Source of the DNA: an uncultured virus (IMG/VR IMGVR_UViG_3300012950_000001) | Taxonomy: Duplodnaviria > Heunggongvirae > Uroviricota > Caudoviricetes | DNA length: 64,000 nt | IMG/VR virus record: IMGVR_UViG_3300012950_000001 | Strand: one strand, 5' to 3' | Shown here: positions 6,285 through 56,359 of the stretch, in pieces | Numbering within the stretch: position 1 is the first letter of the stretch | Layout of the letters: every line of letters begins with the position of its first letter | Program-made: the position numbers and the translations under genes | Notes under the pieces: generated by a model | What the model saw: the letters and a program-made list of their open reading frames with translations, nothing else | Database searches by the model: none | Told to the model about the DNA's origin: nothing

Positions 6285-6290
6285 AAGAAA

Positions 6291-9200: not shown

Positions 9201-12200
9201 GTAACTGTTAATTCATATGATGATGAAATATATTCTTACGGAATACCATTTGTAGCAGGAAGACCAGGCGCTGATATTATTGACTTAAGACCAAGAGCAA
9301 CTTCTGCCGCTGCTGGTCGTTCTCCTTTTGAATTTAATGCAAGATTATTCGATCCATTTACTTCTTCATCAACTCATGTGGTTGCTAAAGATAAGTCAAT
9401 GAATGTAGCTTATGATTATTATCTTGGTAGGATTGATAAACTTTATTTGACTAAAGAAGGGATATTTACTCTTGCTACGGGTATTCCAGCTATTGAACCT
9501 AAGATACCTAATGCTATCGATAATGCATTAGAAGTTGCAACAATAACTTTACCACCATATCTTTACGATTCATCTCAAGCAAAATTGCGTCTTGCAAGAT
9601 ATAAGAGATATCGAATGAAGGATATCTCAGTTATTGAAGATAGACTTAAGAATATCGAATACTATACTGCATTATCACTTCTTGAAAGTGAAACTGCAAA
9701 CATGTCTTTACGTGATCCACAAACTAATCTTGATAGATTTAAGGCTGGATTCTTTGTTGATAACTTTAAATCAGCTGTTGCTGGTGATGTAACTAATACT
9801 CAGTATAAAGCAAGTATTGATGCGGTTTCTGGTAGATTAAGACCTCAACACTATACAACGTCTATTGACTTGTTATTGGGATCTGAGGCTATTGTTGGTG
9901 CTGCAACTTCCGCAAGTCCAGCTGCTGACTATAGATACGTAACGGATCTTGGAGATGCAAACGTCAAGAGAATTGGTGACGTTGTATGTCTAGACTACAG
10001 TGACAAGGTTTATCTTGAGAATAAGTTTGCAACAAGAATTGAGAATGTCAATCCATTTGCTGTTGTTAACTGGATTGGTCAGATTGAACTCAATCCATCC
10101 ACTGATACTTGGATTGAGACAAGAAGGAGTACTGCTACCTATGACATAGAAGGATCCTATAATGGATTCATGGGAATGACTGGTGCAGATAGTAATACTG
10201 GTCTATCTCCAATTGACTGGGGTTCATGGGAGACAACATGGACAGGATCTAGTTCATCTACTGGACCTTCTGTGTTTAGTGATACCAGAACGGCTATGAC
10301 TGGTACAACAGAGACCAGAGGTGAATATGGTCAAGGTGGCCGTCATGGTGTTCCAATTACCACTCATACTCACTTTACAGACACTACTCGGAATTTCAGA
10401 GAACAAACTACAACTACAACTACCAATCAAACTAGAGAAGGTATCCAGTTTAGGGTTGGTGAAAGATTTGATACAACAAGTCTTGGAGATAAGGTAGTTT
10501 CAACTGAAGTTGTTGCTACAATGAGAGCAAGAAATATTGAGTTCGTTTGTAGGAGACTTAAGCCTAATACAAGACTCTATCCATTCTTTGATAACATCGA
10601 CATGCAAAAGTATGTCGTACCAAAACTCATTGAAATTGAGATGGTTAGTGGTACATTTGGACCTGGCGAAGTTGTTGAAGGAAGTCGTCCAAATACCAAT
10701 AATGATGCAATTAGATTCAGATTGGCTAATCAGAATCATAAGTATGGACCATACAATTCTCCTACACAGACATTTAAGGAAAATCCATACAGTCCATCAT
10801 CTTCAATATCTTCCGCTTATTCATCTACAGCTACATTACTTAATGTAGATACTGCTGCATTAGAATTGCAAGCTGCATCTGGTTTCTATGGTTACATTAC
10901 CACTGGTATGAAACTAATAGGACAATCTAGTGGTGCTATTGCAAATGTTAAAGATATTAGATTGGTTACTGATAAAGCAGGAGTCTTGATTGGATCACTA
11001 TACTTACCTGATCCTACTGTTCCTTCTGCACCAACATTTAACACTGGTACTAAGACATTTACATTAACTAGTAGTTCTGCAAACTCCACAATTTCTGGAT
11101 TTACAGATAGTTCTGCTGAGACTAACTTTACTTCTTCTGGAACACTTCAGAATGTAGAGGCTTCTACTTTGAGAATGAGAAATGCTGATGTTCAACGCAT
11201 ACCTCAGTCATCTGACAGAACACTCTCTGATACTGACAGCAGACTTGTCGTTGATACGAGTTTCAATAACAGGTCAACAAGTCAAACAAGATGGGTCGAC
11301 CCTCTTGCACAATCATTTGAAGTACCAGATATTAACGGTGTTTATCTAACTAAGTGTGATGTCTTCTTTAGGGCAAAGGATACAAACCAATTACCTGTTA
11401 CTCTTCAAGTAAGAACACTACAAACTGGTTTGCCTACTCAAGACATTTTACCATTTGGTGAAGTAGTTCTTGATCCATCTGAGGTTGTATTATCTGAGGA
11501 TGGTTCTAAGGCAACAACATTTACATTCCCTTCTCCTGTTTATCTTGAAGGTGGTGGTGAATATTGTCTAGTTCTACTATCTGCATCTAACGAATATTAT
11601 GTCTTTATCTCCAGAATGGGTGAAGAAGATATTACTACAGTTAATGCTGCAGATTCCGAGAAGATTATTGTTTCTTCTCAACCATTACTTGGTTCGTTGT
11701 TCAAGTCACAGAACGGTGCAACATGGGATCCAAGTCAGTTGGAAGACCTTAAGTTTAATCTTTATAGGGCAGACTTCACAACTGAAACTGGTAGAGTTAA
11801 TTTCTATAACCCAGATTTAGAGATTGGAAACAGACAAATTGTTTCACTTGCTCTTAATCCAATTGATATGCTTGAGCATAACAAAGTTGTTGGATTGGCT
11901 AATAGTTTAACTTCCGCACAGATTACAGGACTTACTGAAGGTACAACAATTTACCAACAGAATAATCCAAACTTTAGTGCAAACTTAAGTAAAGTTCTTG
12001 GTGCAATTGGAATTGGAAGTGCTTTGGTTCTAACTAATGTTGGATCTGGATTTACTAATTCTTCTATTGTTTATAATAATGTTCCACTAATTGCACAAAC
12101 TGGTAGTGGTTCTGGTGCTGAGATTAAACTTCACGTTAATAACAGAGTTGGTGTTGCTGCAACTGTATCGATAGGTGGTACAGGATACTCTGCTGGTGAT

Positions 12201-13802
12201 GTATTAACTGTTGATACATCTAAGACTGATAACTTTGGTAAAGATCTAAGATTAACGATTCCAAATAACGTTGGTGTTATTAGTGCATTTAACACAATAC
12301 TACTTAACAGAGTACAGGGATTACCTAAGATCGATGCTTCTTCTGCTATTGTTTATGTTGGTTCTGGTGGAACTACGGTAGTTAATGGTGGTGCTATTAA
12401 GTACCTAAACACTGTAACTGATGGAGTACATTTCAGAGTAAGACATAATAATCATGGTATGTATTCAGTTCAGGATCAAGTTGAATTATTTGGAATTGAA
12501 CCAGATGTTAAACCAGAAAAAGTAACTGCTTCTTTTGATTCTTCAAGTACTTCGGATATTAAAGTATCTTCTGTAGGTATCTTTACTTCATTCGAGAATT
12601 TAGTAGTTGATAGTTCCAATCCAGGCTATGCTAATATTGGTAATGAGGTTATTCAATACACTGGTGTTAATACTTCTCAAGCTACTATAACTGGTATTAC
12701 TAGATCATTTGATACTACTAAGGCTGGCGACTATAACATTAATGATAAGATCTTTAAGTATGAATTAAATGGAGTTTCATTAAGAAGACTTAATACATCC
12801 CACAAATTCACTGATGTTGATCATTCTACATATCCAATTGATGTTGATCATTATTGGGTTAAAGTTGGAGTTTCAAGTCGTGGAGTAGATAGAGCAACTG
12901 GAAACTCTAGTGGATTCCCAGAATTACATTGGAAAGAAACTAAGTCTGGTGGTAGTTATGACCAACAATATGTAATGGTTGGTGTTCCATTCGGACCAAG
13001 AGCGACACAGAATATTCCATTCAATCTTGTTAGACCTAATGTTGGAACCCTTCAACCTGATGGAACAACAATTGATGCTAAGATAAGAACATTTAGTGGT
13101 AATAGTCCAGATGGTTCTTTAACTGCCTATGTTGATCAGGGATATGAACCAATATCATTGAATAGTAATAATACAATGAGTTCTCCAAGAATCGTTAGTT
13201 CTAAGATTAATGAGCTGAATAAGTTGGCAGATTTCCCTGGCAGGAAGTCATTCACTATGCAGTTCTTTATGAAGACTCAGGATTCAAAAGTAACTCCAAT
13301 GATCGACTTGGATAGAGTTAATCTTATCACAACAATGGATAGAATTAACTCCAAGGTTACTGACTATGCAAGTGATTTGAGAGTTAATTCTCTTGATGGT
13401 GATCCAAGTGCTGCAGTTTATCTTTCTAAGATTGTTAATCTTGAAAAGGCTGCTGATGGATTGACAGTCATGTTTGATGCATACAGACATGCAACAAATG
13501 ATATTAGGGTCCTTTATAGGATATTCAGAGTAGATGCTCCACCACAATATCAGTTATTTGAACTATTCCCAGGCTATGATAATTTAGATTCTAATGGTTT
13601 AATTATCAATAAGGCTAAGAATAACGGAAAACCAGATAGAAGGATTCTTTCTTCTTCCACTGAAGCTGACTATAAAGAGTATAAGTTCAGTATTGGAGAT
13701 CTACCTCAGTTTAATGGATTCCAAATTAAAATTATTATGAGTGGTACAAACTATGCGTTTGTTCCTAAACTCCGTGATTTGAGAGCGATTGCTTCTATCT
13801 AA
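6291..13802 (+). CDS. Large virion structural protein, VrlC/DUF4815-like
   Basis: PYFDDF...YQKVLFKPG..IQSRELT.LQS.LQNQ, APGADRF, RRTYDESGNY, GFFVDNF and DPLAQSF motifs; usual position after gp8 in cyanophages. Confidence 0.8.
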   Translation: MPQNTNLNSSPYFDDFNESKNYQKVLFKPGLPIQSRELTTLQSILQNQVEKFGKHFFKEGAVVVPGQLAYESDYTCVQIDDTHLGIPVSLYVENLIGKKVKGETSGVSAKVEGYIDNRTSTKGNYTLYIKYQSSSDTDFSRNRFSDGENLIVQEDVTYSLASIRSGSSFATTLISNATSVGSAAKIAEGVYFIRGFFVTVGSATVILDQYTNTPSYRIGLLIKEELVTASNTDNDLYDNARGFSNYAAPGADRFKISTTLVKKPLTDFNDENFIELMRIEDGKISKFVKESSYNLIRDELARRTYDESGNYYIKPFPVVAKECLNDRIGNNGSYYESQLTQQGNKPKENLMCLSIGPGKAYVRGYEVETLNTTTVDVPKPRVTETIENESIPFSVGRQVELNNVYGAPDVGISTTSYIHLYNKRTATPGTASGLHVGVARLYDMKLKNVAYSGADSTFESSLYDVQTFTYLNLNTAVTSLQVPQYIEGRSSNAAGYLYESVSGRNQLVLYQVVGEFQEGEEIWANGESISRSITRIDDYGMQDVFQFVGTGSTFTADPRLTLGHLIGPTATQFTVTAGSGGVSTVTSPNASFLNVGIKTGDVLSYSVPGNTTPSYGAINQITSGEIVIGQLTTVAGVCTGTLPSATVTTSDLYRTTLEVQNNSKAYLFAELTKPNIASVGLNNANVIFRKSYTISISNNAYSGTLESDSNLSLEPFDEEDYNLAFPGSGVVESLDNQKLTVSGRTATLSNLSTASGTAVLTVTWKKVNVKPKNKIFKRATQITIDKSKSSMAGIGATTNNNGLSFSSIYGTRVEDKRISLTVPDVAYVSAILESSSTAEPQLPALTLTNLNANILNTVQGETIIGKLSGASAILVENNGSNEVKFVQQNENSFQVGEEITFEESNVVADILSATPGDRDIRNNFEFDPGQRMDYVDFSAIVRKPGSEAPTKKLKVIYNNFVIENSDPGDFVTVNSYDDEIYSYGIPFVAGRPGADIIDLRPRATSAAAGRSPFEFNARLFDPFTSSSTHVVAKDKSMNVAYDYYLGRIDKLYLTKEGIFTLATGIPAIEPKIPNAIDNALEVATITLPPYLYDSSQAKLRLARYKRYRMKDISVIEDRLKNIEYYTALSLLESETANMSLRDPQTNLDRFKAGFFVDNFKSAVAGDVTNTQYKASIDAVSGRLRPQHYTTSIDLLLGSEAIVGAATSASPAADYRYVTDLGDANVKRIGDVVCLDYSDKVYLENKFATRIENVNPFAVVNWIGQIELNPSTDTWIETRRSTATYDIEGSYNGFMGMTGADSNTGLSPIDWGSWETTWTGSSSSTGPSVFSDTRTAMTGTTETRGEYGQGGRHGVPITTHTHFTDTTRNFREQTTTTTTNQTREGIQFRVGERFDTTSLGDKVVSTEVVATMRARNIEFVCRRLKPNTRLYPFFDNIDMQKYVVPKLIEIEMVSGTFGPGEVVEGSRPNTNNDAIRFRLANQNHKYGPYNSPTQTFKENPYSPSSSISSAYSSTATLLNVDTAALELQAASGFYGYITTGMKLIGQSSGAIANVKDIRLVTDKAGVLIGSLYLPDPTVPSAPTFNTGTKTFTLTSSSANSTISGFTDSSAETNFTSSGTLQNVEASTLRMRNADVQRIPQSSDRTLSDTDSRLVVDTSFNNRSTSQTRWVDPLAQSFEVPDINGVYLTKCDVFFRAKDTNQLPVTLQVRTLQTGLPTQDILPFGEVVLDPSEVVLSEDGSKATTFTFPSPVYLEGGGEYCLVLLSASNEYYVFISRMGEEDITTVNAADSEKIIVSSQPLLGSLFKSQNGATWDPSQLEDLKFNLYRADFTTETGRVNFYNPDLEIGNRQIVSLALNPIDMLEHNKVVGLANSLTSAQITGLTEGTTIYQQNNPNFSANLSKVLGAIGIGSALVLTNVGSGFTNSSIVYNNVPLIAQTGSGSGAEIKLHVNNRVGVAATVSIGGTGYSAGDVLTVDTSKTDNFGKDLRLTIPNNVGVISAFNTILLNRVQGLPKIDASSAIVYVGSGGTTVVNGGAIKYLNTVTDGVHFRVRHNNHGMYSVQDQVELFGIEPDVKPEKVTASFDSSSTSDIKVSSVGIFTSFENLVVDSSNPGYANIGNEVIQYTGVNTSQATITGITRSFDTTKAGDYNINDKIFKYELNGVSLRRLNTSHKFTDVDHSTYPIDVDHYWVKVGVSSRGVDRATGNSSGFPELHWKETKSGGSYDQQYVMVGVPFGPRATQNIPFNLVRPNVGTLQPDGTTIDAKIRTFSGNSPDGSLTAYVDQGYEPISLNSNNTMSSPRIVSSKINELNKLADFPGRKSFTMQFFMKTQDSKVTPMIDLDRVNLITTMDRINSKVTDYASDLRVNSLDGDPSAAVYLSKIVNLEKAADGLTVMFDAYRHATNDIRVLYRIFRVDAPPQYQLFELFPGYDNLDSNGLIINKAKNNGKPDRRILSSSTEADYKEYKFSIGDLPQFNGFQIKIIMSGTNYAFVPKLRDLRAIASI

Positions 13803-16118: not shown

Positions 16119-16129
16119 TTCAATATGTG

Positions 16130-16161
16130 GGGTTTGCTTTATATCTAAGCAGACCCTTTTT
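16130..16161 (+). terminator. Rho-independent terminator
   Basis: Stem GGGTTTGCTT/AAGCAGACCC (one G-U) followed by TTTTT. Confidence 0.7.
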
Positions 16162-16179
16162 AATTATAGGAGGTAGTTC

Positions 16180-19100
16180 TTGACCGTATTCGTATATGAC
16201 AATACGAAGATAGATGAATTCGTTGGAATAGATCAAGGTTCGATCTTGACTTCTTCTTCGGAGAATATCGACTATGGCGATATAAATCAAACAGCGGTTA
16301 TTGAACGAGACGCAAATTATTTTAATGTAGATTATTGGGGTGAGATCAGATGGCTTGGTGATATAGTACCATTCGGCCCAATAAATGTAGTAGATGGAAG
16401 AGATGAGTTCGGTAGATCTAGATCTCAGGTCATCTTCCCAGCAGATAACACAGTATTATTCGACGTAGGTGCTGCGGCACTGACCAATCCTGTTAGACCT
16501 TGGATTGGTTCTGGTACAATATTCGAGATTGGTCATGGACTGGAAAGACTGGTTATACCAGATCTTGGAGCGGCTGGACCAGTTATCTTCAACACCACTG
16601 GTGTTGTTGATGAGTCATATTCAAAAGCGAATTATAAAGGCAACGGTGTTGGTCTGCAAATTAGCCAAACCGCAGCCACAGAATTAGATCAAGTTTATCC
16701 GTGGGATGGAACAGGTACGTTTAATGTATCTGGAGGAACAACAACTCCTGACCACGAAAGTTACCTCCCAGTAATTAAAAACGCTGCGAAGATTAAGGGT
16801 GGTAATAGAAGAAATTATCAGATTGATAGAGTAATATTTGATTATTCTCGTGACCCAAGAGAGACTTGGACACAGGATAATTACGGTTCAGTAACTACAA
16901 GACAAGGTTCTACATTTGGTAGTACATCACTATCATTTGATGATACTATTGAAGATGCTCTTGCTAAGGAAGTATCATTCAGTGATACTTCAGTAATAAC
17001 TGGAGATAATTACGGTTTAATAACAGATACACCAACATCCTTCAGAGACGATGGTGTAATAGAAAGGAAGTTTGGTGGTCAGATATCTCTACATGAGTAT
17101 CAGGCTTATGGTGTTGGTGCTGTTGAATCCAGACCATTCTTCTTCAATGGTTCAGGAAGTATATTCAAACTTGCTGAAGCAACCGATGTTGCTCAGACAC
17201 CAGTTGTTACTGGTTCTGGTACTATTAATGTTTCTGGAACCAACTGGTTCAGTCAGGCTCCACAAAGTACAGTATTTGGTGTTGGTGATACCGTTACTGT
17301 ATCTGGTAGTGCAGATGAGAGGTTCGTTCCTCAGACTCCAGAAGGTACAGTACTCTACAGTGTAACTGGTAACGCTGATACTGCAAGATCTAGAATTACT
17401 ACTGGATCTAGAAATCCATTCAGGATTACTGGATCTGTATCCGATATTAGTATTGTTACTGGTAGTGGTGATAAGTCTAATACCGTACTCTACAGTATTA
17501 GTGGTGGATATACCGATCTTAAGGCCGTTAAGGCAGATGGTAATATAAACCTCTTCGATATTACTGGAGGAATGACACAGGGCAAACCTGTATTCACTCC
17601 TTCTTGGTTCTCTCCTCTTGGAGATCAGGTTACAGAAGAACTGGATTGGGGTCAAATTGTTGCGACTCCAACTCAGCCTGCGGAAGATTGGGAAGTCATC
17701 AGGACAAACGACGAGACTATTCCAAAATCAGCAGAGAATTGGGGATATCTCCTTCCAGACTTCAACTGGGCTCAACTTGGAGGACAACATTATCCAAATC
17801 TGGATTCTCTCTCAACAGGAGAATCTTCTTGGATCAGACAGACTTCTGCTATTACAGAGACTGCGACATTCCTCCTTTCAGAGGATCCAGATGTTGCAGC
17901 TGCACTTGCTTGGGAATCTTCTGGAAAATCTGGTATTGCTACACACAATGCTGGTATATTCATATCTGGAGAACTCTGGTTATCACAGGCTCCACAACAC
18001 ACAGTATTCGGTGAAGAAGGTCAATTTACCATCAGTAGTACTGGTAATGAGTCTATCACTCCTTGGATTCCTGAAGGAAGTGGATCACTCTTTACTCTTG
18101 GTGGATCTGCTGAGGCTACTACTAAGGCACACCTACAAGGTGATTATCAGTACATTGGTGGTACTGCTGGTCAGGTCTTTAGTCCTGCTGTGCCAGGTAC
18201 TGGTTCTATTACCCTCAGTCAGGGTAGAGAGCCAGGTCAGACATACAGTAGAATCATTGATACACCAGAGTTGGCCTTTGGTGGAACCTTCAATATGGTT
18301 GGTCAGGCTCTCAGTCAGGCCTTCTTCGCATATAATACTTCCTCACTATTCGTTGGTCAGACCAATGAGGATTACGGTAATATTACTAATGATCCAGCCT
18401 TCGGTTGGGATCTCAATCAACTTGGTCAGGCTTCTGGTACTGAGACATTCGATGATGAGACTAACAAATATGACCAAGATGTTCTCTTCAGTAGTGGAGG
18501 TCTAACATACGACCAAGGATCTGGTGGTGTTACAGTTCTACCTTCCTTTGATAAGACTAATAGTTACTCTAGTGATCTTTCTACAACTGTTGTATCTCAG
18601 TCTTGGGGTATTCTTGGAGAACAACAGCTTGAACCTAGATCTGACGCTCAATATACTCAAGAGACTCCACACTTCACTGGATTCAAACATCAGAGTGAGG
18701 GTACTAGGAACGGACTTGAAGACTTTGGTTGGGTTAATGAGACTGCACCAACAGCGAACAGGTATCCATTCGAGACTCCAATCAAGATTGTTGATGCTTC
18801 TCCTCCTGCCAAGACTCAGTGGATTCCGAAGTATCACGGTTCTGGAACACTTATTGTTACTGGTCTTTCTACAGCTCCTGTTAGAGTTGCTGTTGCAAGT
18901 AGTAATACAACACTATTCGACTTCCAAGGTACAACTGCACCAGAGAAGTTTATTGCTCAGACTCCAGAGAATACTGTTCTTTACGATACCTCTGGTCTTC
19001 TTGTCGAAAGAACCACCAAGGATTGGGTTGGTCTTGGAACCATCACCCTCCAAAAACATCAGGGTGTTGGATTTACCACTTACAGAAGAATCATCTTCCC

Positions 19101-20889
19101 ACCATCAAGTGGTATTACAACTATCAGTGGTGCTTCAGTCGAGAAATGGAGTGGAGATCCTCCAGAAGGAACATACCTTCACATCTTCGACAATGGCCCG
19201 ATTTACGAGAAGGTTACTCTCGCAGCTCAGGCACAGAAGGTTACTACAAGACTCTACGGTACTCTGGAACATCCAGATATCGACTTCACACCCCATTATG
19301 GTATCGAAAGAAACATCGGTATCGAGACTGGAATTACATTATCGCCTGGTGGTGGTACGGACAGAACTACTGGTATTACAACTTCCAGCTTTATTCCGAA
19401 CTATCCAGGCGGTCAATCTGCTCTTGATGGACAAGGTGGAAAGACTCACGAAGTTATCAAGATCGATGGTCGTTCGATCTCCAGAACCAACGCTCCTATC
19501 AGTACTCACGGTGTTATCTACATTCTGGGTATTGGTACTGCTGGAAACGGTGTTGGAGGCCCAGACGAGAAAGGAGATCTCGATGGAGTCGAATTTGGTG
19601 CAAAAGAACGCTTTATACCTGCAACCGAATACGGTTTCGGGTCGATCATGTTCGACTTTACTGGAACGGCTCCATCCAGAGTCATTCAGGTATTTGGTTA
19701 TTATGGAGACGACAGAGATCCAGGCGCTGGTACAACTGGTCAAATCAGTATCAGGAACGAAGGTTCAGTTGGCTCTTCCGAGAAACTTACTGTTCAGGAA
19801 GTCGGAATATCCACTTACAACTTCAGTGGTGCATACTCAGATTTCAAATCTACATTTACAGAAGTTGGATCTGGATCTCTATACTCCATCGGTGGATCTT
19901 CAGAGAACGTTGCAGCTGCAGAACTTGTTGCTGGAACTTCCATATTCAATGGAACTGCACAAGAATCCTTCATTGCTCAGACTCCAGAGAATACTGCAAC
20001 GCTTACACTCTCTGGAACTGGAGATGCCTTCCGTCAGCGTATATGGGTTGGTACTGGAAATATCTCTCTCAGCAACAACATCAAGGTTGTTACTGGAATC
20101 AGAATTTCCTTGGCTGGAAATGGTTCTCTATTCGGATTCGGTGCTGCTGCAGAAGCAATTCCATATCAAGGATTTGCAAGTTCTGTTCTTGTCGATTTTG
20201 TTGGAGAGGCAGAAACAAGAGAGATCGCAGTTTATCAGGATCACGTTACATCTGGTATTCTTACATTCTCTGGTGCTCTTTCGCATCCACTCATCGACTT
20301 CACTCCTGCTCCAAAGGGATCTGGATTATTCACAGTTGGTGGTACTCTCGATCTCAAGGTATTCACCAGAGAAATTGGATCTGGTTCTGCTACGATTACT
20401 GGTGGATCGGATGTCAAATTCATCAGTCAGGCTGGCGAAGGAACAATTCTTTACGATCTCAAGGGTGCTTCGGCAATCACGAAACTCCATTGGGTCTATC
20501 AGGATTTCGTTACTTCTGGTATTGCTACAGTCTCTGGTCTTGGTGGGACAAAAGAGATTCAGAATTATGGATACTACGGAGACGACAGAGATCCAGGCAC
20601 ATCAGGAATTATTACGATCTCTGGAACACCTCTGGTACATCCAGATGTTCGTTACATTCCACATGTTGGAATTGGAGTCGCAGTTCTATACGATATCGGG
20701 GGAAGCTCTACCGAGAGAAGGGCTTGGGCTCCAGTATACGGAACAGGATCCTTCAAGAAATTTGCATCTCTCGATGAGGCATACGCAAGAACATCCTACA
20801 TTGCTAGTGGTCAAGTTAATATTAATGGTATCGCTCCAACTGAAATTCTGGTCTTCGAGGAAGGAAGAACCTACGTTGTTATTATTTAA
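16180..20889 (+). CDS. Large repetitive Gly/Thr/Ser-rich virion structural protein (fibre/tail-associated, function unknown)
   Basis: 1569-aa ORF; TTG start with SD AGGAGGT at 16168-16174; D[YW]G, AQTPENT, GYYGDDRDPG and HP.IDFTP internal repeats; lies in the structural cluster. Confidence 0.75.
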   Translation: MTVFVYDNTKIDEFVGIDQGSILTSSSENIDYGDINQTAVIERDANYFNVDYWGEIRWLGDIVPFGPINVVDGRDEFGRSRSQVIFPADNTVLFDVGAAALTNPVRPWIGSGTIFEIGHGLERLVIPDLGAAGPVIFNTTGVVDESYSKANYKGNGVGLQISQTAATELDQVYPWDGTGTFNVSGGTTTPDHESYLPVIKNAAKIKGGNRRNYQIDRVIFDYSRDPRETWTQDNYGSVTTRQGSTFGSTSLSFDDTIEDALAKEVSFSDTSVITGDNYGLITDTPTSFRDDGVIERKFGGQISLHEYQAYGVGAVESRPFFFNGSGSIFKLAEATDVAQTPVVTGSGTINVSGTNWFSQAPQSTVFGVGDTVTVSGSADERFVPQTPEGTVLYSVTGNADTARSRITTGSRNPFRITGSVSDISIVTGSGDKSNTVLYSISGGYTDLKAVKADGNINLFDITGGMTQGKPVFTPSWFSPLGDQVTEELDWGQIVATPTQPAEDWEVIRTNDETIPKSAENWGYLLPDFNWAQLGGQHYPNLDSLSTGESSWIRQTSAITETATFLLSEDPDVAAALAWESSGKSGIATHNAGIFISGELWLSQAPQHTVFGEEGQFTISSTGNESITPWIPEGSGSLFTLGGSAEATTKAHLQGDYQYIGGTAGQVFSPAVPGTGSITLSQGREPGQTYSRIIDTPELAFGGTFNMVGQALSQAFFAYNTSSLFVGQTNEDYGNITNDPAFGWDLNQLGQASGTETFDDETNKYDQDVLFSSGGLTYDQGSGGVTVLPSFDKTNSYSSDLSTTVVSQSWGILGEQQLEPRSDAQYTQETPHFTGFKHQSEGTRNGLEDFGWVNETAPTANRYPFETPIKIVDASPPAKTQWIPKYHGSGTLIVTGLSTAPVRVAVASSNTTLFDFQGTTAPEKFIAQTPENTVLYDTSGLLVERTTKDWVGLGTITLQKHQGVGFTTYRRIIFPPSSGITTISGASVEKWSGDPPEGTYLHIFDNGPIYEKVTLAAQAQKVTTRLYGTLEHPDIDFTPHYGIERNIGIETGITLSPGGGTDRTTGITTSSFIPNYPGGQSALDGQGGKTHEVIKIDGRSISRTNAPISTHGVIYILGIGTAGNGVGGPDEKGDLDGVEFGAKERFIPATEYGFGSIMFDFTGTAPSRVIQVFGYYGDDRDPGAGTTGQISIRNEGSVGSSEKLTVQEVGISTYNFSGAYSDFKSTFTEVGSGSLYSIGGSSENVAAAELVAGTSIFNGTAQESFIAQTPENTATLTLSGTGDAFRQRIWVGTGNISLSNNIKVVTGIRISLAGNGSLFGFGAAAEAIPYQGFASSVLVDFVGEAETREIAVYQDHVTSGILTFSGALSHPLIDFTPAPKGSGLFTVGGTLDLKVFTREIGSGSATITGGSDVKFISQAGEGTILYDLKGASAITKLHWVYQDFVTSGIATVSGLGGTKEIQNYGYYGDDRDPGTSGIITISGTPLVHPDVRYIPHVGIGVAVLYDIGGSSTERRAWAPVYGTGSFKKFASLDEAYARTSYIASGQVNINGIAPTEILVFEEGRTYVVII
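18952..19996 (+). repeat. 25-nt exact direct repeat ATTGCTCAGACTCCAGAGAATACTG (18952-18976 and 19972-19996)
   Basis: Read directly; 1020 nt apart, in frame (IAQTPENT). Confidence 0.9.
19705..20598 (+). repeat. 21-nt exact direct repeat GGAGACGACAGAGATCCAGGC (19705-19725 and 20578-20598)
   Basis: Read directly; 873 nt apart, in frame (GDDRDPG). Confidence 0.9.
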
Positions 20890-20892
20890 TTC

Positions 20893-20900
20893 TATAAATA
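20893..20900 (+). promoter_or_regulatory. T4 late promoter TATAAATA
   Basis: Perfect consensus between the 1569-aa gene and the 20934 ORF. Confidence 0.8.
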
Positions 20901-20933
20901 AATCAGAAGCATAACTATTTGACCTCTTGAAAT

Positions 20934-21392
20934 ATGACTAAGCAGGTTCAATTTAGAAAGGGTACAACCGCTGAACACTTTAACTTTACAGGTGCGTTAG
21001 CAGAAATTACCGTTGATACCGATAAAAATACCGCAGTTGTACATGACGGTGCAACGCCTGGTGGATTTGAACTTGCAAAAGCAAGATGGACATTTGTTAG
21101 CGGAAATTATACTGCTGGTACGAACCAGAAATATACTGTTGATTCTACGAACAGTCCAGCGGGATTCGATCTTACTCTCCCCACGCCTCGTGCGGTAGGA
21201 GACTGGATATGGGTGGAGGACTTTTCTAATTTCTTAAGTATTAACCCCATAAATATAGTATCACAATACTCATTTGAAAACGGACATTTGGTTCAGGCCT
21301 CATCTCCTTTTATTATGGATGTGTCAGGGGCATCAGTAACATTCATTTGGAATGGATCTCTGTGGAAGATATTCAATAACAGGAGTAGTTAG
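20934..21392 (+). CDS. Tail-fibre-associated protein: Mtd_N-like N-terminus plus T4 gp34-like repeat
   Basis: QVQFRKGTTAEH..FTGA.AEITVDTDK....VHDG.T.GG is the Mtd/hyaluronidase N-terminal type motif; C-terminal LTLP....GD.I...D....F..NP..I resembles the C-terminus of the 21830 fibre. Confidence 0.7.
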   Translation: MTKQVQFRKGTTAEHFNFTGALAEITVDTDKNTAVVHDGATPGGFELAKARWTFVSGNYTAGTNQKYTVDSTNSPAGFDLTLPTPRAVGDWIWVEDFSNFLSINPINIVSQYSFENGHLVQASSPFIMDVSGASVTFIWNGSLWKIFNNRSS

Positions 21393-21829: not shown

Positions 21830-24800
21830 ATGGCTGAGTTTAGACTTGGAAGAGTAAAATTCAACTGGACAGGTGATTGGGCTGTATCCAAGTCCTACCT
21901 GATCGATGACATCGTGAAGTTCGGTGGTAACACATATGTTGCTACATCGAATCACACATCGACGGCCAGCACATCGAATTTTTACGCAAACGATTTAGGG
22001 AACTGGAACGTTCATATCGAGGGCCTTGCACAGAAAGGTGCTTGGGCAACTGGTACTTACTATCGTGTCAATGACCTCGTTACCTATGGTAACGTGGTTT
22101 ATCGTGTGACAACGGCTCACACTTCAGAAGGAACTTTCATAGACAATACGAAAGTAACTCCATATGTCTCTGGATTTAAATCCGAGGGAGATTGGGCAAA
22201 TGGTGACGAGTATCAAGCAGGTGACGTTGTTAATTACAACGGATCTTCTTATGTTGCTTTAACAACATCTCTCGCAGGATTTCAACCTCCACAAAACTTA
22301 GGAGTCGCAACCGATCCTAATGCTAAGTGGACAATCTTATCAGATGGTCTTGCTGGTGCCGCTCTTACGTACTCCGAGAACTCTTATTATAGAGGTGACT
22401 TGGTTCAGTATGGTGGTAACATCTACCGTCATAAGATTGGTGTTACAACAAACGTTTCTCCATTACAGGTTGGTCTTGGATCAGTCGCTCCCGAATCATA
22501 TAATGGTGATGCAGTCTGGGATCTCCTAGTAAAAGGTTTTAATTTTGTAGGTAACTTCTCTACAACTTATACCTATCACCCAGGCCATCTTTCAAGATAT
22601 GGTTCAACTTCTTACCTATCAGTTGGTTCATCCCACATTAATGTAATTCCTACTGCTGGAATTGGAACATATTGGGAAGTTCTTGCTCAGGGTGATTCCT
22701 CTGGTGCGATGAACACCAAGGGTGACATCATTACATACAACTCAGGTAATGTAAGAATTGGTATTGGTTCTACAGGTTATGCTCTTGCAGTTCAAGCAAA
22801 CGGATTGCCAGGATACGAGATTGTAGGTAACCAAACAAGAATCTATTATGTTGACTCTGAAGACGGAGTTGATACAAACAACGGTCTTGCACCTAACTTG
22901 GCGTTTAAGACTATTAAGAAGGCTTGCGAAGCTGCACGTCCTCTAACAACTATTACTGGAGTTGATTACACTAGTGCAACTGGTGTTTCAACCGTTACGG
23001 CTCCTGGCCACGGACTACAAAACACTGGTACTTTCGTCCAGTTACAGGGTCTTGACTTTGAGTGTCTATCTGGAGGTAACGTATTCAACATTCTGGGTAT
23101 GGTAATGAACAAGGCAGTTGGTCTTGCGACTATAACTGCTATTGGTCTTGGTGGTGCTCCTGAAGTTTCTATCGGTGAAAAAGTTAGAATCAGGAAATTG
23201 AATGTTACTTATACTGGTTCTGCAAGATTCACACACCAATTCCAGACCGCTGCTACTGGTGCAGTTATCGCTGGTGGTAATTACGCTCATAACTTTATTA
23301 GTTGTGCTGCTAACGGTGTTCAAATCGTTGGTGGATCAAGTGTAACTCCAACAGGTTCTACATACGACCCTGCAAATGGTAACTTAGTACTAACACTGTC
23401 TGGTCATAGTCTATCAACTTCTGATAAACTTACCATTTCCGCTAACGCACTGACATTTACTTGTGCGATGAACGGTAATGCTTCTAACAAGACATATCCT
23501 CGTACAACTGACCCAACATACGGTCAACAGTTGAACATTACAGGAACAACAACAAATACCGTTACGGTTAACGTTGGTGCTTCTGCTCAGGAACTACTTA
23601 CACCGACTGCTGCTACCTACAACGAAAACACTGGTGATTTAACACTTACAATTGCCGCTCACGGTTTAACTGCTGGTACTGCAATCAAACTCGCTAACGA
23701 TGGATTAACATTCCGTTGTTCAATGGACGGTTATACAACCGATCACACATATCCAAGATCAAGTGATCCTAAGTATAACACTTCAATCGATATTACTCAG
23801 GTAACCACTAACACAATTACAATTAACGTTGGTGCGGCTGCTGCAAGTGCTACTATTACAGGTAAGTTCCCTGCTGTACATACTCAAGGTTCTTATGAGT
23901 TCCTAGTAACTGCTGTTCCTGATGCAAACTCTGTTGTATTGAACGTTGGTGTATCAACAGTTGATTACAACTACGCTTCTGGTGGTACTGGATTCGTTGG
24001 TCTAACTACAACCACATATCCTAGAGTTGTTTCCAAGTCTTACTTCGAGATTCTTGAAGTTCCCGACGGTGATACATTCAAGGTTAATGTTGGTGTTTCT
24101 ACTCAGGCTCACGAGTACGTAAGTGGCGGTACAATGACTGACTTGACACCTGCTATCCTGAAACTATCTGCTTCGCAGTTCTATGAGCAACTTCCAATTG
24201 TTGTTCCTCCTTACACTGCTATCGTAGGTAACGCACTTAGAGGTTCTCAGGTTCTACCTGCAACTGGTACATCTGATGATGGTACTACACCAAACAACAG
24301 GTCCCACATGTTCAAGATGTCTGACTCTACAACGATTCAGGCGATCTCCATGAAAGGAATGGAAGGATTCACATATGACTCTAACGCTCCTTGGCAACTA
24401 GACAATTCAAATATCAGAACTGGTATTGGTACAACTGCTTGCGGTATATTCGTCTCCTTCAACCCAGATTCTCCAATTAACGATAAATCACCATACGTTA
24501 AGGACTGTACTGCTTTCTCAGACAATGCTGCAGAGGCAGTTCCTCCAAGATTTGGTGGTGGTGCTTGTGGAGTACTCGCTGATGGTGGAGTACATAATGA
24601 AGGTGCAAAATCGATGGTATTCGATGCCTTCACACACGTCGCATCTGACGGTGCTGGATATGTTCTAGACAGAAGTGCAATCGCTGAGATTGTTTCCTGC
24701 TTCACATACTACGCCCGTTGGGGATACTACTCAGGTGGTGGATCAAGAATTCGTGGAGTTGGTGGTAACAACTCATATGGTGACTATGGAGTCATCTCTT

Positions 24801-26257
24801 CTGGATTCTCAACTGATGAGACACCAAGGACTGCAAGAGTCTTCGGAGACATGATGACAGTTCTTGGTGCTAACAAGGCTGGTACAGTCTCAGTTGGTGC
24901 AACAATGTTCGGTGCAACATCTAAGGCAACTGCATGGATGTTAAACGATCAGATCTCTGCTGATAAGATTTACTTCAAGTATCAAACTGGATACGGTAAC
25001 GCTGGAATCGGAACCACTGGTTTCGTAGATTCAGAGGTTATCTGGTTCGGTGCTGGTGCTGAGGCAAGTTCTGGAGTTGGTTCAATTACCGTCGGTACTG
25101 CTGCAAGTTCAGTCACAGGACAAAAGGGTACAATTCTTGAGGTTGATAATACTTCTGGAGTACTCCTAGTTGGTGACGCTATCGGAATTAAGACATCACT
25201 CTATGGTGCAGATGAAAGATTCTACATCATTAACACAGTTACAAACGTTTCTACCGCATCTACTTACTACGAGTGGAAGGCAGGATCAACCGCAGGTATC
25301 GCAATTACGTTCCCGAATCGTGCTACTCTGACAATTTCGCCAGAGAAGACAATCGGTACATGGGATACAAGGGCTGTAACTAACGCAGGCGCTGGATCTA
25401 CAATTGACGTTAGAACATTGTTCTCACAGTGTCGTCTAACAGGTCACGATTTCCTCGCAGTTGGTACAGGTAACAAAACAGAAACTAACTATCCTAACGT
25501 TGATCTCGCTGGAGTTATTCAGGGTAATGAGACAAACGTATTTGGGCCTGGTAAGGTGTTCTTCGTATCTACCGACCAAGGTGGTAACTTCCGAGTTGGT
25601 GAATTCTTCTCGGTTGATCAGCTAACTGGTCGTGCTACATTGGATGCTTCCGCCTTCAACCTGTCTGGTTTGACAGAATTGAGACTGGGTGCTATTGGTG
25701 GTCAGATTGGTGAATCAATTAGTGAATTCTCCTCCGACCAAACACTTGCAGGTAACGCTAACAACGCAGTTCCAACTGAGTACGCAGTTAGGGGATTCTT
25801 AACTCGTGGCGCAATGGGAACCAAGGCGATGACACCTCCAGTAGGTACAACCGCTCAAAGACCTGGCGGCGTTGATGATGAGTTCAACACTGGTGCATTG
25901 AGATTCAACACTACTCTTGGTTCTCTTGAGTACTATGATGGAACTTCATGGCAACAGCCTGGTAACCTTGCGTTTAGTACATTAACATCTAATACAAACG
26001 TTCTTGCTAATAACGTCTACTTCTGTCAGACCACTGGTGGTCCATTCAGTTGTACTTTACCTGCTGCTCCTAACCTTGGAGACACAATCAGGTTCTTCGA
26101 CGTTGCTAAGACCTTCGACACTAACGCATTGACAATCTCCCGTAACGGAAAACCGATTCAGGGTGATACTTCAGATCTTACCGTAAATACAGAAGGTGCC
26201 GCATTTGAGTTATCCTTCTCTGGTGATACATACGGATGGAGACTATTCACCATCTAA
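21830..26257 (+). CDS. Long tail fibre-like protein with N-terminal carbohydrate-binding-module-like repeats
   Basis: MAEFRLGR.KF.W.G.W; repeated W....Y...D.V.YGG..Y units; YYV...G.D.N.G...AFKTIKKA (pectin-lyase-like start); GHDFL.VGTG; PVGTTAQRP; gp34-like C-terminal repeat; GGAG RBS. Confidence 0.8.
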   Translation: MAEFRLGRVKFNWTGDWAVSKSYLIDDIVKFGGNTYVATSNHTSTASTSNFYANDLGNWNVHIEGLAQKGAWATGTYYRVNDLVTYGNVVYRVTTAHTSEGTFIDNTKVTPYVSGFKSEGDWANGDEYQAGDVVNYNGSSYVALTTSLAGFQPPQNLGVATDPNAKWTILSDGLAGAALTYSENSYYRGDLVQYGGNIYRHKIGVTTNVSPLQVGLGSVAPESYNGDAVWDLLVKGFNFVGNFSTTYTYHPGHLSRYGSTSYLSVGSSHINVIPTAGIGTYWEVLAQGDSSGAMNTKGDIITYNSGNVRIGIGSTGYALAVQANGLPGYEIVGNQTRIYYVDSEDGVDTNNGLAPNLAFKTIKKACEAARPLTTITGVDYTSATGVSTVTAPGHGLQNTGTFVQLQGLDFECLSGGNVFNILGMVMNKAVGLATITAIGLGGAPEVSIGEKVRIRKLNVTYTGSARFTHQFQTAATGAVIAGGNYAHNFISCAANGVQIVGGSSVTPTGSTYDPANGNLVLTLSGHSLSTSDKLTISANALTFTCAMNGNASNKTYPRTTDPTYGQQLNITGTTTNTVTVNVGASAQELLTPTAATYNENTGDLTLTIAAHGLTAGTAIKLANDGLTFRCSMDGYTTDHTYPRSSDPKYNTSIDITQVTTNTITINVGAAAASATITGKFPAVHTQGSYEFLVTAVPDANSVVLNVGVSTVDYNYASGGTGFVGLTTTTYPRVVSKSYFEILEVPDGDTFKVNVGVSTQAHEYVSGGTMTDLTPAILKLSASQFYEQLPIVVPPYTAIVGNALRGSQVLPATGTSDDGTTPNNRSHMFKMSDSTTIQAISMKGMEGFTYDSNAPWQLDNSNIRTGIGTTACGIFVSFNPDSPINDKSPYVKDCTAFSDNAAEAVPPRFGGGACGVLADGGVHNEGAKSMVFDAFTHVASDGAGYVLDRSAIAEIVSCFTYYARWGYYSGGGSRIRGVGGNNSYGDYGVISSGFSTDETPRTARVFGDMMTVLGANKAGTVSVGATMFGATSKATAWMLNDQISADKIYFKYQTGYGNAGIGTTGFVDSEVIWFGAGAEASSGVGSITVGTAASSVTGQKGTILEVDNTSGVLLVGDAIGIKTSLYGADERFYIINTVTNVSTASTYYEWKAGSTAGIAITFPNRATLTISPEKTIGTWDTRAVTNAGAGSTIDVRTLFSQCRLTGHDFLAVGTGNKTETNYPNVDLAGVIQGNETNVFGPGKVFFVSTDQGGNFRVGEFFSVDQLTGRATLDASAFNLSGLTELRLGAIGGQIGESISEFSSDQTLAGNANNAVPTEYAVRGFLTRGAMGTKAMTPPVGTTAQRPGGVDDEFNTGALRFNTTLGSLEYYDGTSWQQPGNLAFSTLTSNTNVLANNVYFCQTTGGPFSCTLPAAPNLGDTIRFFDVAKTFDTNALTISRNGKPIQGDTSDLTVNTEGAAFELSFSGDTYGWRLFTI

Positions 26258-26322: not shown

Positions 26323-27105
26323 ATGGCAAGTTATCGATCATATAAAAAAGTAACGGCAGCTATGGTTCCTGATGGATCCATAAGTGTAGAGAAACTTGCG
26401 CCAGGTTCTGGTCCATCTTTTTGTGTAAAGCATATTAAAGGATCACCAAACTCATGTACGCCTGGTTGCTGCTGTAACTGGCAAGTACCATCAGGTGCTT
26501 CACGTATTACGTGGGAAGTTTGGGGTGCTGGAGGAAATGGACATGGATCATGTTCCTGCAACAGATGTCAGCACTACAGGGCTGCATCAGGTGGTGCATA
26601 CAATATTAAGACCATTCAGACTTCTGGTGGTTGTCAATATAGTGTATGTGCTGGAGGAGTTTATAGATGTTGTTCTAGGGAATGTAACGGTTGCGAAGGA
26701 TGTTCATCTTACGTAAATGGTTATAACTTATCCAACTTCTGTGCCAGAGGTGGTGCAAGAGGTTGTGCAAACACTGACTGGTCAAACCATTGTCACTCTA
26801 CTTGGTGGTGCTGCATGGCGCCAGGAAGTTGGGGTGGAGACTTTACCATGAGTGGTCACCAGGCACACTGGTCTGGTCACTGGAACTGTCATTGTGGTTC
26901 AACCGTTGGTAACGTTTGTTCGCCAGGAGCTCCGTTCCTTGCAATGGGTCAAGAACACAGAATGACTCACTGTTGGCAACGTTGTGGTTGCTGGACTGCG
27001 CCTTATGCAACAGGAGGCGGTGGGGCTTTAACATCCTACTGTGGTCGTTGTTGTGGTCAGGGTGGCCAGGGTGGATCTGGCGTTGTACGTATTACTTGGA
27101 TGTAA
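26323..27105 (+). CDS. Cys-rich glycine-rich-domain protein, paralogue 1 (putative fibre-tip/adhesin)
   Basis: WEVWGAGG.G ... GG.GG.G.V.I.W glycine-rich fibre-tip framework; 29 Cys in 260 aa by count. Confidence 0.7.
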   Translation: MASYRSYKKVTAAMVPDGSISVEKLAPGSGPSFCVKHIKGSPNSCTPGCCCNWQVPSGASRITWEVWGAGGNGHGSCSCNRCQHYRAASGGAYNIKTIQTSGGCQYSVCAGGVYRCCSRECNGCEGCSSYVNGYNLSNFCARGGARGCANTDWSNHCHSTWWCCMAPGSWGGDFTMSGHQAHWSGHWNCHCGSTVGNVCSPGAPFLAMGQEHRMTHCWQRCGCWTAPYATGGGGALTSYCGRCCGQGGQGGSGVVRITWM

Positions 27106-27114
27106 GGAGCAGAA

Positions 27115-27909
27115 ATGGCTGATTATTCGTCTTACAAAAAAATTAATGGAGATACCTTTGAAGCTGGTATCTTAGATGGGAACAAATTTAGTTCTTCTCC
27201 CACATCTACCTACGGTGTTAAGTGGGTATATGGAACAATGTGTAGATGCTCGCCTGGTTGTTGCTGCAACTGGACTGTACCTACAGGAGTTACTAAACTG
27301 TGGGTCCAACTTTGGGGTGCAGGTGGTAACGGAACAGGAGCTTGTTCCTGTAACAGATGTCAGCACTATAAAGCTGCTGGTGGTGGATACTATAACAGTC
27401 AGATTGCTACTACTCAAGGTGGTTGTACATACAGTGTATGTGCTGCTGGTGTTTATCCTTGCCTTTCACGAGAGTGTTACGGTTGCAATGGATGTTCTTC
27501 TTACATTAATGGTTATGGATTCTCTAATTTCTGTGCCGTAGGTGGTGGTCGAGCATGTGCTAATACATCTTGGTCAACAGAATGTACATCTGATTGGGCA
27601 TGTTGTGCATCTCCTACCACTTGGGGTGGAGAAATGGCAATGGGTAACCACTATGGTGTATGGAGTAACGCAAGTTATGATACATATAGAGGTTGGTGTC
27701 ATTGTTATAACCAAGGTATTACACCTACCAGTGCTCCTTTAATCGGTACTATGGTCCAACAGGCAACAAGAGGCTGTTGGGTACGTTGTGGTTGCTGGAT
27801 CGTACCTTATGGTAATGGCGGACAAAGCGCTATGACAAACTACTGTGGTCGCTGTTGCGGTCAAGGTGGTACAGGTGGCGGTGGATTAGTTAAAATTACA
27901 TACTTCTAA
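27115..27909 (+). CDS. Cys-rich glycine-rich-domain protein, paralogue 2
   Basis: Same framework (PGCCCNW, CSCNRC, RCGCW, YCGRCCGQGG); AAGGAG RBS. Confidence 0.7.
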   Translation: MADYSSYKKINGDTFEAGILDGNKFSSSPTSTYGVKWVYGTMCRCSPGCCCNWTVPTGVTKLWVQLWGAGGNGTGACSCNRCQHYKAAGGGYYNSQIATTQGGCTYSVCAAGVYPCLSRECYGCNGCSSYINGYGFSNFCAVGGGRACANTSWSTECTSDWACCASPTTWGGEMAMGNHYGVWSNASYDTYRGWCHCYNQGITPTSAPLIGTMVQQATRGCWVRCGCWIVPYGNGGQSAMTNYCGRCCGQGGTGGGGLVKITYF

Positions 27910-27922
27910 GTAAGGAGAAACG

Positions 27923-28711
27923 ATGGCCAATTATTCATCATACAAACAGATTAAGAACTCGCAGGTAACGGATGGTACTATTCCAACCTCTGCGCTGGCT
28001 TCGGGTGCTTTCTCCAACTGGAACATTAAATGGGTATATGGTACTCCAAACTCATGTACGCCTGGATGTTGCTGTAACTGGCAAGTACCAACTGGAATAA
28101 ACAAGATTAGTTTTGAAGTTTGGGGTGCTGGTGGTAATGGTCACGGTACTTGTTCATGTAACAGATGCCAAAACTGGTTCGGTGCAGGTGGTGGATTCTA
28201 TAACACAAAAACTATTGGAACTCAAGGTGGTTGTCAATATAGTGTATGTGCTGGTGGAGTTTATCGTTGTTGTTCGAGAGAATGTACTGGATGTCATGGA
28301 TGTGCATCCTACGTTAATGGTTACAACTTAAGTAATTTCTGTGCCTTGGGTGGTACAAGAGCTTGTGCAACCAGTGGTTGGACAAACGCATGTTACTCAC
28401 AGTTTGAGAGATGCTGCTTACAACCAGGCGCATGGGGTGGAGACTTCGGTATGGGTAACCATGCTGGAACATCATACAAATTGTATGGTTGGGATTGTCA
28501 CTGTTTCTACAACATGGAACACCCAACAGGTGCTCCGTTCATTGGAACCCTAGGTGTTGTCTCTGCTGTTAGGCATTGTTGGATACGTTGTGGTTGCTGG
28601 ACTGTACCTTATGGCCACGGTGGCCAGAGTGCTTTGACTGCATATTGTGGTCGTTGTTGTGGTCAGGGAGGACAAGGTGGTTCTGGTCTAGTTAAGATTA
28701 CTTACGTCTAA
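27923..28711 (+). CDS. Cys-rich glycine-rich-domain protein, paralogue 3
   Basis: Same framework; AAGGAG RBS. Confidence 0.7.
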   Translation: MANYSSYKQIKNSQVTDGTIPTSALASGAFSNWNIKWVYGTPNSCTPGCCCNWQVPTGINKISFEVWGAGGNGHGTCSCNRCQNWFGAGGGFYNTKTIGTQGGCQYSVCAGGVYRCCSRECTGCHGCASYVNGYNLSNFCALGGTRACATSGWTNACYSQFERCCLQPGAWGGDFGMGNHAGTSYKLYGWDCHCFYNMEHPTGAPFIGTLGVVSAVRHCWIRCGCWTVPYGHGGQSALTAYCGRCCGQGGQGGSGLVKITYV

Positions 28712-56269: not shown

Positions 56270-56298
56270 GACAGAAGGAAATAATTCCTTTATTCAAG

Positions 56299-56327
56299 AG
56301 AGACTCCTTTGGGGGGTCTCTTTTTTT
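56299..56327 (+). terminator. Rho-independent terminator after gp23
   Basis: AGAGACTCC...GGGGTCTCT stem followed by a T-tract. Confidence 0.85.
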
Positions 56328-56359
56328 GTGCCTATATACTAAACCATATTATTGTCATT

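Follow-up and report, generated by a model that had tools for sequence, protein, structure and literature searches.

Synonymous selection against stop triplets in all three forward frames of a cyanophage tail-module gene

Why should a phage gene be kept free of stop triplets in frames other than its own? The question is raised by a 64,000-nucleotide (nt) stretch of DNA from an uncultured virus of the Caudoviricetes (IMG/VR record IMGVR_UViG_3300012950_000001), which was analysed as a whole and is hereafter called the window. On its plus strand, at 16180-20889, lies a gene for a repeat-rich protein of 1569 amino acids (aa), and within this gene the 1869 nt from 18906 to 20774 (hereafter the zone) hold a single stop triplet in the three forward frames together. 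The initial annotation of the window had noticed this, and our recount confirms it: the one triplet is a TGA at 19425-19427, in the +2 frame, whereas the minus strand of the same interval has 104. Intervals of 1869 nt taken over the 64-kb window have a median of 118 stops, and the minimum on the minus strand is 83. Ranked by length over both strands of the window, the first three stop-free gaps (1350, 522 and 439 nt) are all inside this gene, and the fourth measures 151 nt. Since the absence of stops from frame 0 comes free of charge, only the off-frame depletion needs explaining.

The depletion is far outside what the encoded protein or the codon usage of the phage would produce. In 2000 synonymous permutations within the region, with the protein fixed, the zone had 51.9 off-frame stops on average and never fewer than 38, and with codons sampled according to the usage in 14 further genes of the window the mean rose to 81.1 and the minimum to 61, against one observed. 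Neither kind of shuffle came near one stop or fewer, and the claim that the depletion was achieved synonymously is borne out. Scored by frame, permutation predicts 9.2 stops in the +1 frame and about 42.5 in the +2 frame, and the off-frame open reading frame (ORF) of the zone is far longer than codon permutation permits. In the +2 frame, TGA occurs once against 22.4 expected (z -6.4), TAA is absent against 10.1 (z -4.4) and TAG is absent against 10.0 (z -4.2); together with TTT (z -4.3) they are the four most depleted of the 64 triplets in that frame. Enriched there are TGG, CGA, CAG, CAA and GAA, while TAC and TAT are at the expected level, and over all frames the next most depleted triplet after the stops is ATG, at 0.39 of its frequency in the window. 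The depletion is thus restricted to TAA, TAG and TGA, on the sense strand only, as had been proposed, and it is reached through context-dependent synonymous choice. We conclude that natural selection holds 18906-20774 free of stop triplets in all three forward frames. Of the synonymous changes that the zone could undergo, 13.7% would make a stop; at least 15 zone substitutions seen in DNA contigs of four sequencing runs created none against about two expected, a difference that is not significant.

The zone is one of several segments into which the gene can be divided. Expected numbers in the following list come from synonymous permutation, with the +1 and +2 frames scored separately.

16180..20889, plus strand: the gene, 1569 aa, repeat-rich, with a TTG start and its TAA at 20887-20889; homologue of SSSM7_110 of phage S-SSM7
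16180..17058, plus strand: N-terminal part, neutral; 20 (+1) and 33 (+2) stops against 21.9 and 31.1 expected
17059-17571, plus strand: following segment; 3 and 20 stops against 7.4 and 23.6
17573..18012, plus strand: island with three frames open over 439 nt; 1 and 0 stops against 4.0 and 9.9
18013-18906, plus strand: middle segment, +2 frame neutral; 1 and 40 stops against 3.6 and 38.9
18906..20774, plus strand: the zone; 0 and 1 stops against 9.2 and 42.5
19425..19427, plus strand: TGA, the sole stop of the zone, in the +2 frame and private to the lineage of the window
20775..20889, plus strand: tail, neutral; five +2 stops ahead of the main TAA at 20887; codes for the conserved C-terminus ...EEGRTYVVII
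17576..20911, plus strand: +1 frame open over 3.3 kb with one stop, at 18503; closes at 20912, 25 nt beyond the main stop

Because neutral density adjoins near-zero density, selection is on or off by segment. The 40 stops that we count in the +2 frame of the middle segment, where a hand count by the initial annotation had given about the same figure, are what a neutral sequence should have, and the last 114 nt are likewise neutral, with 0 and 5 stops against 0 and 4.5 expected. The island is the best-conserved part of the protein; the middle segment is the least-conserved part and carries the lone +1 stop at 18503. In the N-terminal part off-frame stops are conserved because the sequence itself is. 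Elsewhere in the window, six of six control genes proved neutral in the same permutation test, and three of four further genes of low stop density (26323-28711, 56285-56914) fit their permutations, the other one (26323-27102) having a slightly low +2 frame (12 against 17.2 stops, about 2 standard deviations below). The low density in two of three paralogues rich in Cys and Gly fits their composition. The same restriction is seen in the complete genome of S-SSM7 (232,878 nt), whose six longest stop-free gaps all fall in SSSM7_110, followed by one of 179 nt; in SSSM7_110 the +1 frame is open for 3771 nt (1257 codons). The trait is therefore confined to one gene, both in the window, where 10 other genes were tested, and in S-SSM7.

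These statistics bear on what the selective agent could be. A strand-specific nuclease, a primase or a promoter-like set of motifs whose targets coincide with the three stops could in principle be behind the trait, and only the off-frame depletion would have to be accounted for; TATAAATA, found just downstream of the gene, and the sigma-70 hexamers do contain TAA or TGA. Such a non-translational signal is nevertheless very improbable, for exactly the three stops are depleted, with TGG enriched, TAC and TAT neutral and the next triplet down only to 0.39, and the trait is limited to parts of one gene. No enzyme is known to have specificity for these three triplets. Only translation is known to treat TAA, TAG and TGA alike, which makes off-frame ribosomes the likely selective agent.

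To find out how the trait fares in relatives, we collected homologues of the gene. Among phage records these are S-SSM7 and S-SSM6a (47% by tblastn over the last 660 aa; 55-58% in alignments), Sf-FS3 (45%) and S-SCSM2R (30%), to which IMG/VR added 13 and 51 loci. When the best 8000 candidates by shared words were scored, at least 353 related proteins had an E-value of 1e-5 or better. The comparison map comprises the window and 24 complete, non-identical homologous genes with 45-84% identity to the protein of the window; incomplete genes and loci whose longest ORF is the neighbouring gene (L003, L006/L022, L007/L023, L012-L016) were left out, as were duplicates (L024 of L009, L036 of L011, L030 of L010, and L004, which is the window's own sequence). 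Several of the 25 sequences are near-duplicates, so the counts over them are not independent. In 23 of the 24 relatives the longest run free of stops in all frames measures 1197-2145 nt; Sf-FS3, the exception, has 522 nt. In the equivalent of 19010-20760, 16 of the 25 sequences have no more than one +2 stop, and 22 of 25 have no +1 stop in the equivalent of 18510-20870. Beyond this set, the last 600 nt ahead of the tail hold 0 and 3 stops (+1 and +2 frames) in S-SCSM2R, where 5.5 and 13.0 are expected, and 0 and 4 in L013, where 3.1 and 15.0 are; L012 and L014 (25-29% identity) show neutral density. All complete homologues down to 45% identity have the trait.

The two ends of the clean zones behave differently. 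At the 3' end, the +2 frame closes in the equivalent of 20764-20785 in 21 of the 25 sequences and at 20839-20854 in the other four; the island, whose +2 frame is clean in 22 of 25, has its end at 18010 in 20 and at 18013 in three; and the +1 frame ends anywhere from 11 nt before to 67 nt after the last sense codon. At the 5' end the edges are ragged, lying at various points up to about 19010 in the well-kept lineages. Whether the boundaries are conserved, as the initial annotation had asked, can therefore be answered in the affirmative for the 3' edges only. This pattern is expected if selection sees only the stop nearest a downstream anchor: if fitness is set by the length of the off-frame run, clean stretches are defended, and stretches upstream of a stop drift to neutral density.

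Lineages in which the zone is interrupted are informative in this respect. The S-SSM7 subclade has a patch of 8-10 +2 stops at 19462-19588, whose nucleotide identity to the nearest clean relatives is 0.63-0.67, against 0.69-0.81 for its flanks; compared with distant relatives the patch is better conserved than the flanks. As it is more diverged than its flanks from the nearest relatives, the patch looks like a recombinational import. New stops upstream of it number 7 in L039 and L055 and 1-2 in L001 and L050, and there are none in L041. A different cluster of stops, at 20236-20272, is common to Sf-FS3, L067 and L068; Sf-FS3 has about 17 +2 stops upstream of the cluster, and its last 522 nt are clean. 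In L008 and L009 all 274 codons for shared residues are identical over the equivalent of 19951-20772, as compared with 14-32% differing elsewhere in the gene; their last, C-terminal module was recently exchanged between phages.

Do the off-frames encode anything? They are long enough to raise the possibility of real products, either fast-evolving disordered overprinted proteins or trans-frame fusions made through an unrecognised recoding signal: the longest +1 ORFs reach 796 codons in the window and 1257 in S-SSM7, and ORF length compared with codon permutation is reported to serve in nominating same-strand overlapping genes of viruses and phages (PMC6188560). The gene shares with such overprinted genes off-frame ORFs far beyond their permuted length, but here both off-frames are open, and neither purifying selection on an off-frame peptide nor a conserved start is found. 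In every segment and every pair compared, conservation is lowest at codon position 3 of the main frame (position 2 of the +1 frame). Off-frame peptides of the window are 72% and 70% identical to those of L005 (main frame 83%) and 37% and 35% identical to those of S-SSM7 (main frame about 55%). Pooled synonymous divergence, taken as the fraction of same-residue codons that differ, amounts to 0.26-0.28 within clean segments as against 0.30-0.33 outside them, a drop of about the size expected from forbidding 13.7% of synonymous changes, so that stop avoidance alone suffices. Beyond it, position-3 conservation and synonymous divergence reveal no purifying selection on an off-frame protein. Off-frame translations have no family match in Pfam or PHROGs, those of 13 homologues match no main-frame protein (best E-values 0.13 and 0.85), and no C-terminal degron conserved among the products is evident. 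No start site is conserved among the 25 sequences, whose 5' edges differ between lineages, and no strong peak of synonymous conservation, such as a recoding signal might leave, marks the edges of the zone. Within the gene, synonymous diversity drops most sharply elsewhere, at 17215-17257, where the TGSGT... motif is encoded and 12 informative codons show 0.33 of the expected value. The off-frames thus seem to encode no conserved protein, and we regard real off-frame products as quite unlikely.

Iterative frameshifting, bypassing and a frameshift-tolerant cassette had been among the mechanisms proposed for the gene, and the sequence supports none of these three. Programmed recoding in phages, such as -1 frameshifting of tail assembly chaperones and the bypass in T4 gene 60, likewise lets ribosomes switch frame or position inside a structural gene; here, by contrast, there is no slippery heptamer, no stop after a take-off codon and, at the zone edges, no strong synonymous-conservation peak that might betray a stimulatory element. 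The gene lacks canonical X XXY YYZ heptamers (with Y counted as A or T) in all its segments, and the zone contains one A run of at least 5 and no T run of at least 5, which leaves iterative frameshifting without a canonical heptamer and transcriptional slippage without an A or T run of sufficient length. Homopolymer avoidance is present in every gene tested and hence is not specific to the zone. In the window at large, T runs of at least 4 (in several genes also A runs of at least 4) are strongly avoided relative to synonymous permutations, with z down to -8.1 (e.g. 1-4650, 6285-13799 and 21830-26254), and canonical slippery heptamers are rarer than expected in the long genes tested. This looks like a genome-wide avoidance of slippage-prone or terminator-like tracts. 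RNA folding is also more structured than in synonymous permutations in the zone (z -6.4), but this is also true of the N-terminal part (-3.9) and of the fibre gene that follows (-5.5), and is therefore not zone-specific.

Bypassing of the gene 60 type involves a stop right after the take-off codon and matched take-off and landing codons around a non-coding gap. The zone spans two paralogous modules of about 300-340 aa each, and the repeats between which ribosomes had been suggested to slide belong to these modules:

18933..18976 and 19953-19996, plus strand: direct repeat D1, 86% identical, 1020 nt apart, in frame; encodes F-I-A-Q-T-P-E-N-T, the start of each module
19684..19725 and 20557-20598, plus strand: direct repeat D5, 83% identical, 873 nt apart, in frame; encodes Y-Y-G-D-D-R-D-P-G

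The zone has no stop other than the one at 19425, and so none that follows a take-off codon, and the repeats, spaced 873-1020 nt, merely repeat coding motifs in frame, so this candidate was rejected. The copies of D1 and D5 include exact nucleotide runs of 25 and 21 nt in which all synonymous positions are identical, and synonymous diversity at these sites is mildly low (0.59-0.68 of expected). The identical runs could reflect gene conversion between modules or a codon-level constraint.

A frameshift-tolerant variable cassette, also suggested for the gene, and more generally the idea that open frames let indels or out-of-frame recombination create new fibre sequence without truncation, would be in keeping with a fast-evolving, mosaic tail-module gene in which module exchange is visible (L008/L009). 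Compensated indels do occur, namely a 13+1-nt pair in L005 and a +1/-1 pair in a metagenomic contig, but both lie in the N-terminal part, outside the zone. Inside it, all indels are multiples of 3 in six of six pairwise nucleotide alignments (72-86% identity), and there is no trace of homology between frames in the comparison of 13 homologues described above. Second-order selection is, moreover, unlikely to hold some 50-80 sites one by one. This evolvability reading is largely refuted, and we consider it highly improbable. As to a diversity-generating retroelement, no near-identical pair of repeats was seen in the gene, a reverse transcriptase not having been searched for in the window; the only hint toward such an element is the Mtd_N domain in the next gene.

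What, then, would be gained by removing the stops? Selection on ribosomes not terminating in any frame, the idea put forward by the initial annotation, is retained here as the simplest reading of the selected property, without the recoding mechanisms listed with it. An account that we favour tentatively, rating it possible rather than probable, is error handling at the level of translation, in which off-frame ribosomes would run on to an anchor near the end of the gene instead of releasing truncated protein. Some ribosomes would leave frame 0 by spontaneous slippage, on transcripts bearing indels or by stray internal initiation, and selection would strip the off-frame stops that release such ribosomes within the C-terminal modules. 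A ribosome in the +2 frame would then continue to a fixed anchor about 100-120 nt before the end of the gene, and one in the +1 frame to a point at or just beyond the main stop. The likely benefit is that the faulty chain gains a long junk tail and is discarded, whereas a clean truncation would leave an assembly-competent stub able to spoil a tail structure made of many copies. We infer that the harm is done by the truncated protein.

Several observations weigh against this account. The island is clean, yet 0.9 kb of neutral density follows it, so that a second anchor at 18010 must be assumed. L067 and L068 have the cluster of stops at 20236-20272 but also a clean block of 1401 nt upstream of it, and L011 has a lone stop at 20581. 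Other long structural genes, for proteins of 2505, 1549 and 1475 aa, lack the trait, so a cost specific to this gene must be assumed as well, and the +1 and +2 zones differ in extent. In addition, it has to be conjectured that a junk-tailed chain is less harmful than a stub, and that ribosomes read the off-frames at all is deduced from the sequence.

Alternatively, off-frame translation might itself be useful, with ribosomes on the off-frames covering, unwinding or stabilising the long 3' part of the mRNA. The message would in that case be meant for reading in all three frames, the off-frames being kept as tracks and frame-independent translation serving as a regulatory device: off-frame ribosomes could shield or unwind a 4.7-kb message with sparse translation as they move along it, or could time or limit synthesis of the fibre. 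Frames open without peptide constraint are what such a role calls for, and the same argument has been made for the reverse ORFs of narnaviruses (PMC8155312). Entry points exist, as the +1 frame of the zone holds 13 ATG, 20 GTG and 29 TTG, and the features that precede the gene could mean that ribosomes in frame 0 are sparse:

16129..16157, plus strand: terminator-like hairpin of 11 pairs followed by a T run, between the preceding gene and the gene at 16180-20889
16168..16182, plus strand: Shine-Dalgarno sequence AGGAGG, a 6-nt spacer and the TTG start codon

However, off-frame start codons are neither enriched nor depleted relative to synonymous permutations, motifs resembling Shine-Dalgarno sequences are depleted (GAGG 2 against 8.2, GGAGG 1 against 4.9), and the ragged 5' edges leave no defined entry site conserved. 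Local RNA folding is the same as in other genes, other long genes of the phage lack the trait, and junk protein on the kilodalton scale would be costly. A function of off-frame ribosomes as a shield is therefore unlikely in our view, and reading of the mRNA in three frames as a regulatory device is equally doubtful; the error-handling account remains the one that we prefer.

Nearest among described cases are the ambigrammatic narnaviruses, in which a stop-free reverse ORF runs across the gene for the RNA-dependent RNA polymerase (PMC8155312; PMC8316113; bioRxiv 10.1101/761890). The peptide of the reverse ORF has been argued to be non-functional, and ribosome cover has been proposed as the reason for its openness (PMC8155312). 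To that extent the two systems agree: the choice among synonymous codons of the main frame keeps a further long frame open, stops lie near the 3' end, and ribosome association is proposed as the selected property. The narnavirus frame, however, is described as lying on the reverse strand of an RNA genome, codon-aligned and nearly as long as the genome, whereas here both sense-strand off-frames of a double-stranded DNA phage mRNA are open, in segments of one gene and with ragged 5' edges. Measured by what defines ambigrammatic ORFs, the gene has a selected open ORF without peptide constraint, but not a reverse, codon-aligned frame, its minus strand carrying the 104 stops. The ambush hypothesis also ties selection on off-frame stops to frameshift errors, but it predicts that such hidden stops are enriched or neutral (PMC5909447, PMC3700767, PMC2996987). 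The sign is opposite here, the stops being almost wholly removed, and from one gene only.

No described mechanism explains the trait. The initial annotation named no described system of this kind in a phage virion gene, and our full-text literature search, covering one collection, found no published description of one. New here are the selection switched on or off by segment, the fixed 3' as opposed to ragged 5' edges, and the imported-looking patch of the S-SSM7 subclade with the gain of stops upstream of it. Textbook expectation has off-frame stops as neutral or helpful; in this case selection removes them almost completely from one gene across a phage lineage, and without a hidden protein. 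If error handling is the explanation, the fate of mistranslated chains, stub or junk tail, can shape kilobases of synonymous sites, and tail structures would be unusually sensitive to truncated subunits; if the off-frames are ribosome tracks, genes can be expressed in a way not described before. As a signature the trait is clean and testable, since it concerns one gene, can be altered by synonymous edits and is present in relatives that are in culture, namely S-SSM7 and Sf-FS3 (hosts Synechococcus WH8109 and WH8102). It is also a warning for gene finders and screens for overlapping genes, in that very long off-frame ORFs need not be genes.

The gene belongs to the tail module of a T4-like marine cyanophage. 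Around it are encoded gp8 (baseplate wedge), a DUF4815 protein of 2505 aa, virion structural proteins, a small tail protein with an Mtd_N domain and a tail fibre protein of 1475 aa, and the gene order is that of Synechococcus phage S-SSM7, where the homologue SSSM7_110 is annotated as hypothetical. The aligned start of the homologues is TTG-ACC/ACA in 20 of the 25 sequences and ATG in five. A strong hairpin just 5' of a consensus AGGAGG and TTG (16129-16182) suggests, by its position directly upstream, that the giant gene is expressed by read-through, below the level of the preceding gene. The 1569-aa protein has no Cys and three internal Met. Pfam has no family for it, PHROGs give a weak match only (phrog_11522, function unknown), a PDB profile search returned no match at E-values up to 1, and the ESM Atlas yielded no usable match (recognition value 1330). 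An AlphaFold2 model of residues 465-1569, built with 36 aligned sequences, was unusable at a mean pLDDT (predicted local distance difference test) of 24. Downstream of the gene lies the following feature:

20893..20900, plus strand: TATAAATA, between the stop of the gene and the start of the next one (20934); a candidate match to the T4 late-promoter consensus

The 1475-aa tail fibre protein of the window (21830-26257) has three CBM_5_12 carbohydrate-binding modules near its N-terminus; at its C-terminal end it is similar to the product of 20934-21392, the small Mtd_N tail protein (PHROG 9648). The Cys/Gly-rich paralogues mentioned above are three tandem genes at 26323-28711, whose products match PHROG 4205 (function unknown), with Pfam Gly_rich_2 below the cut-off. 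Each product has about 260 aa, of which 10-11% are Cys and 17% Gly, and the motifs CCCNW and CSCNRCQ are common to them.

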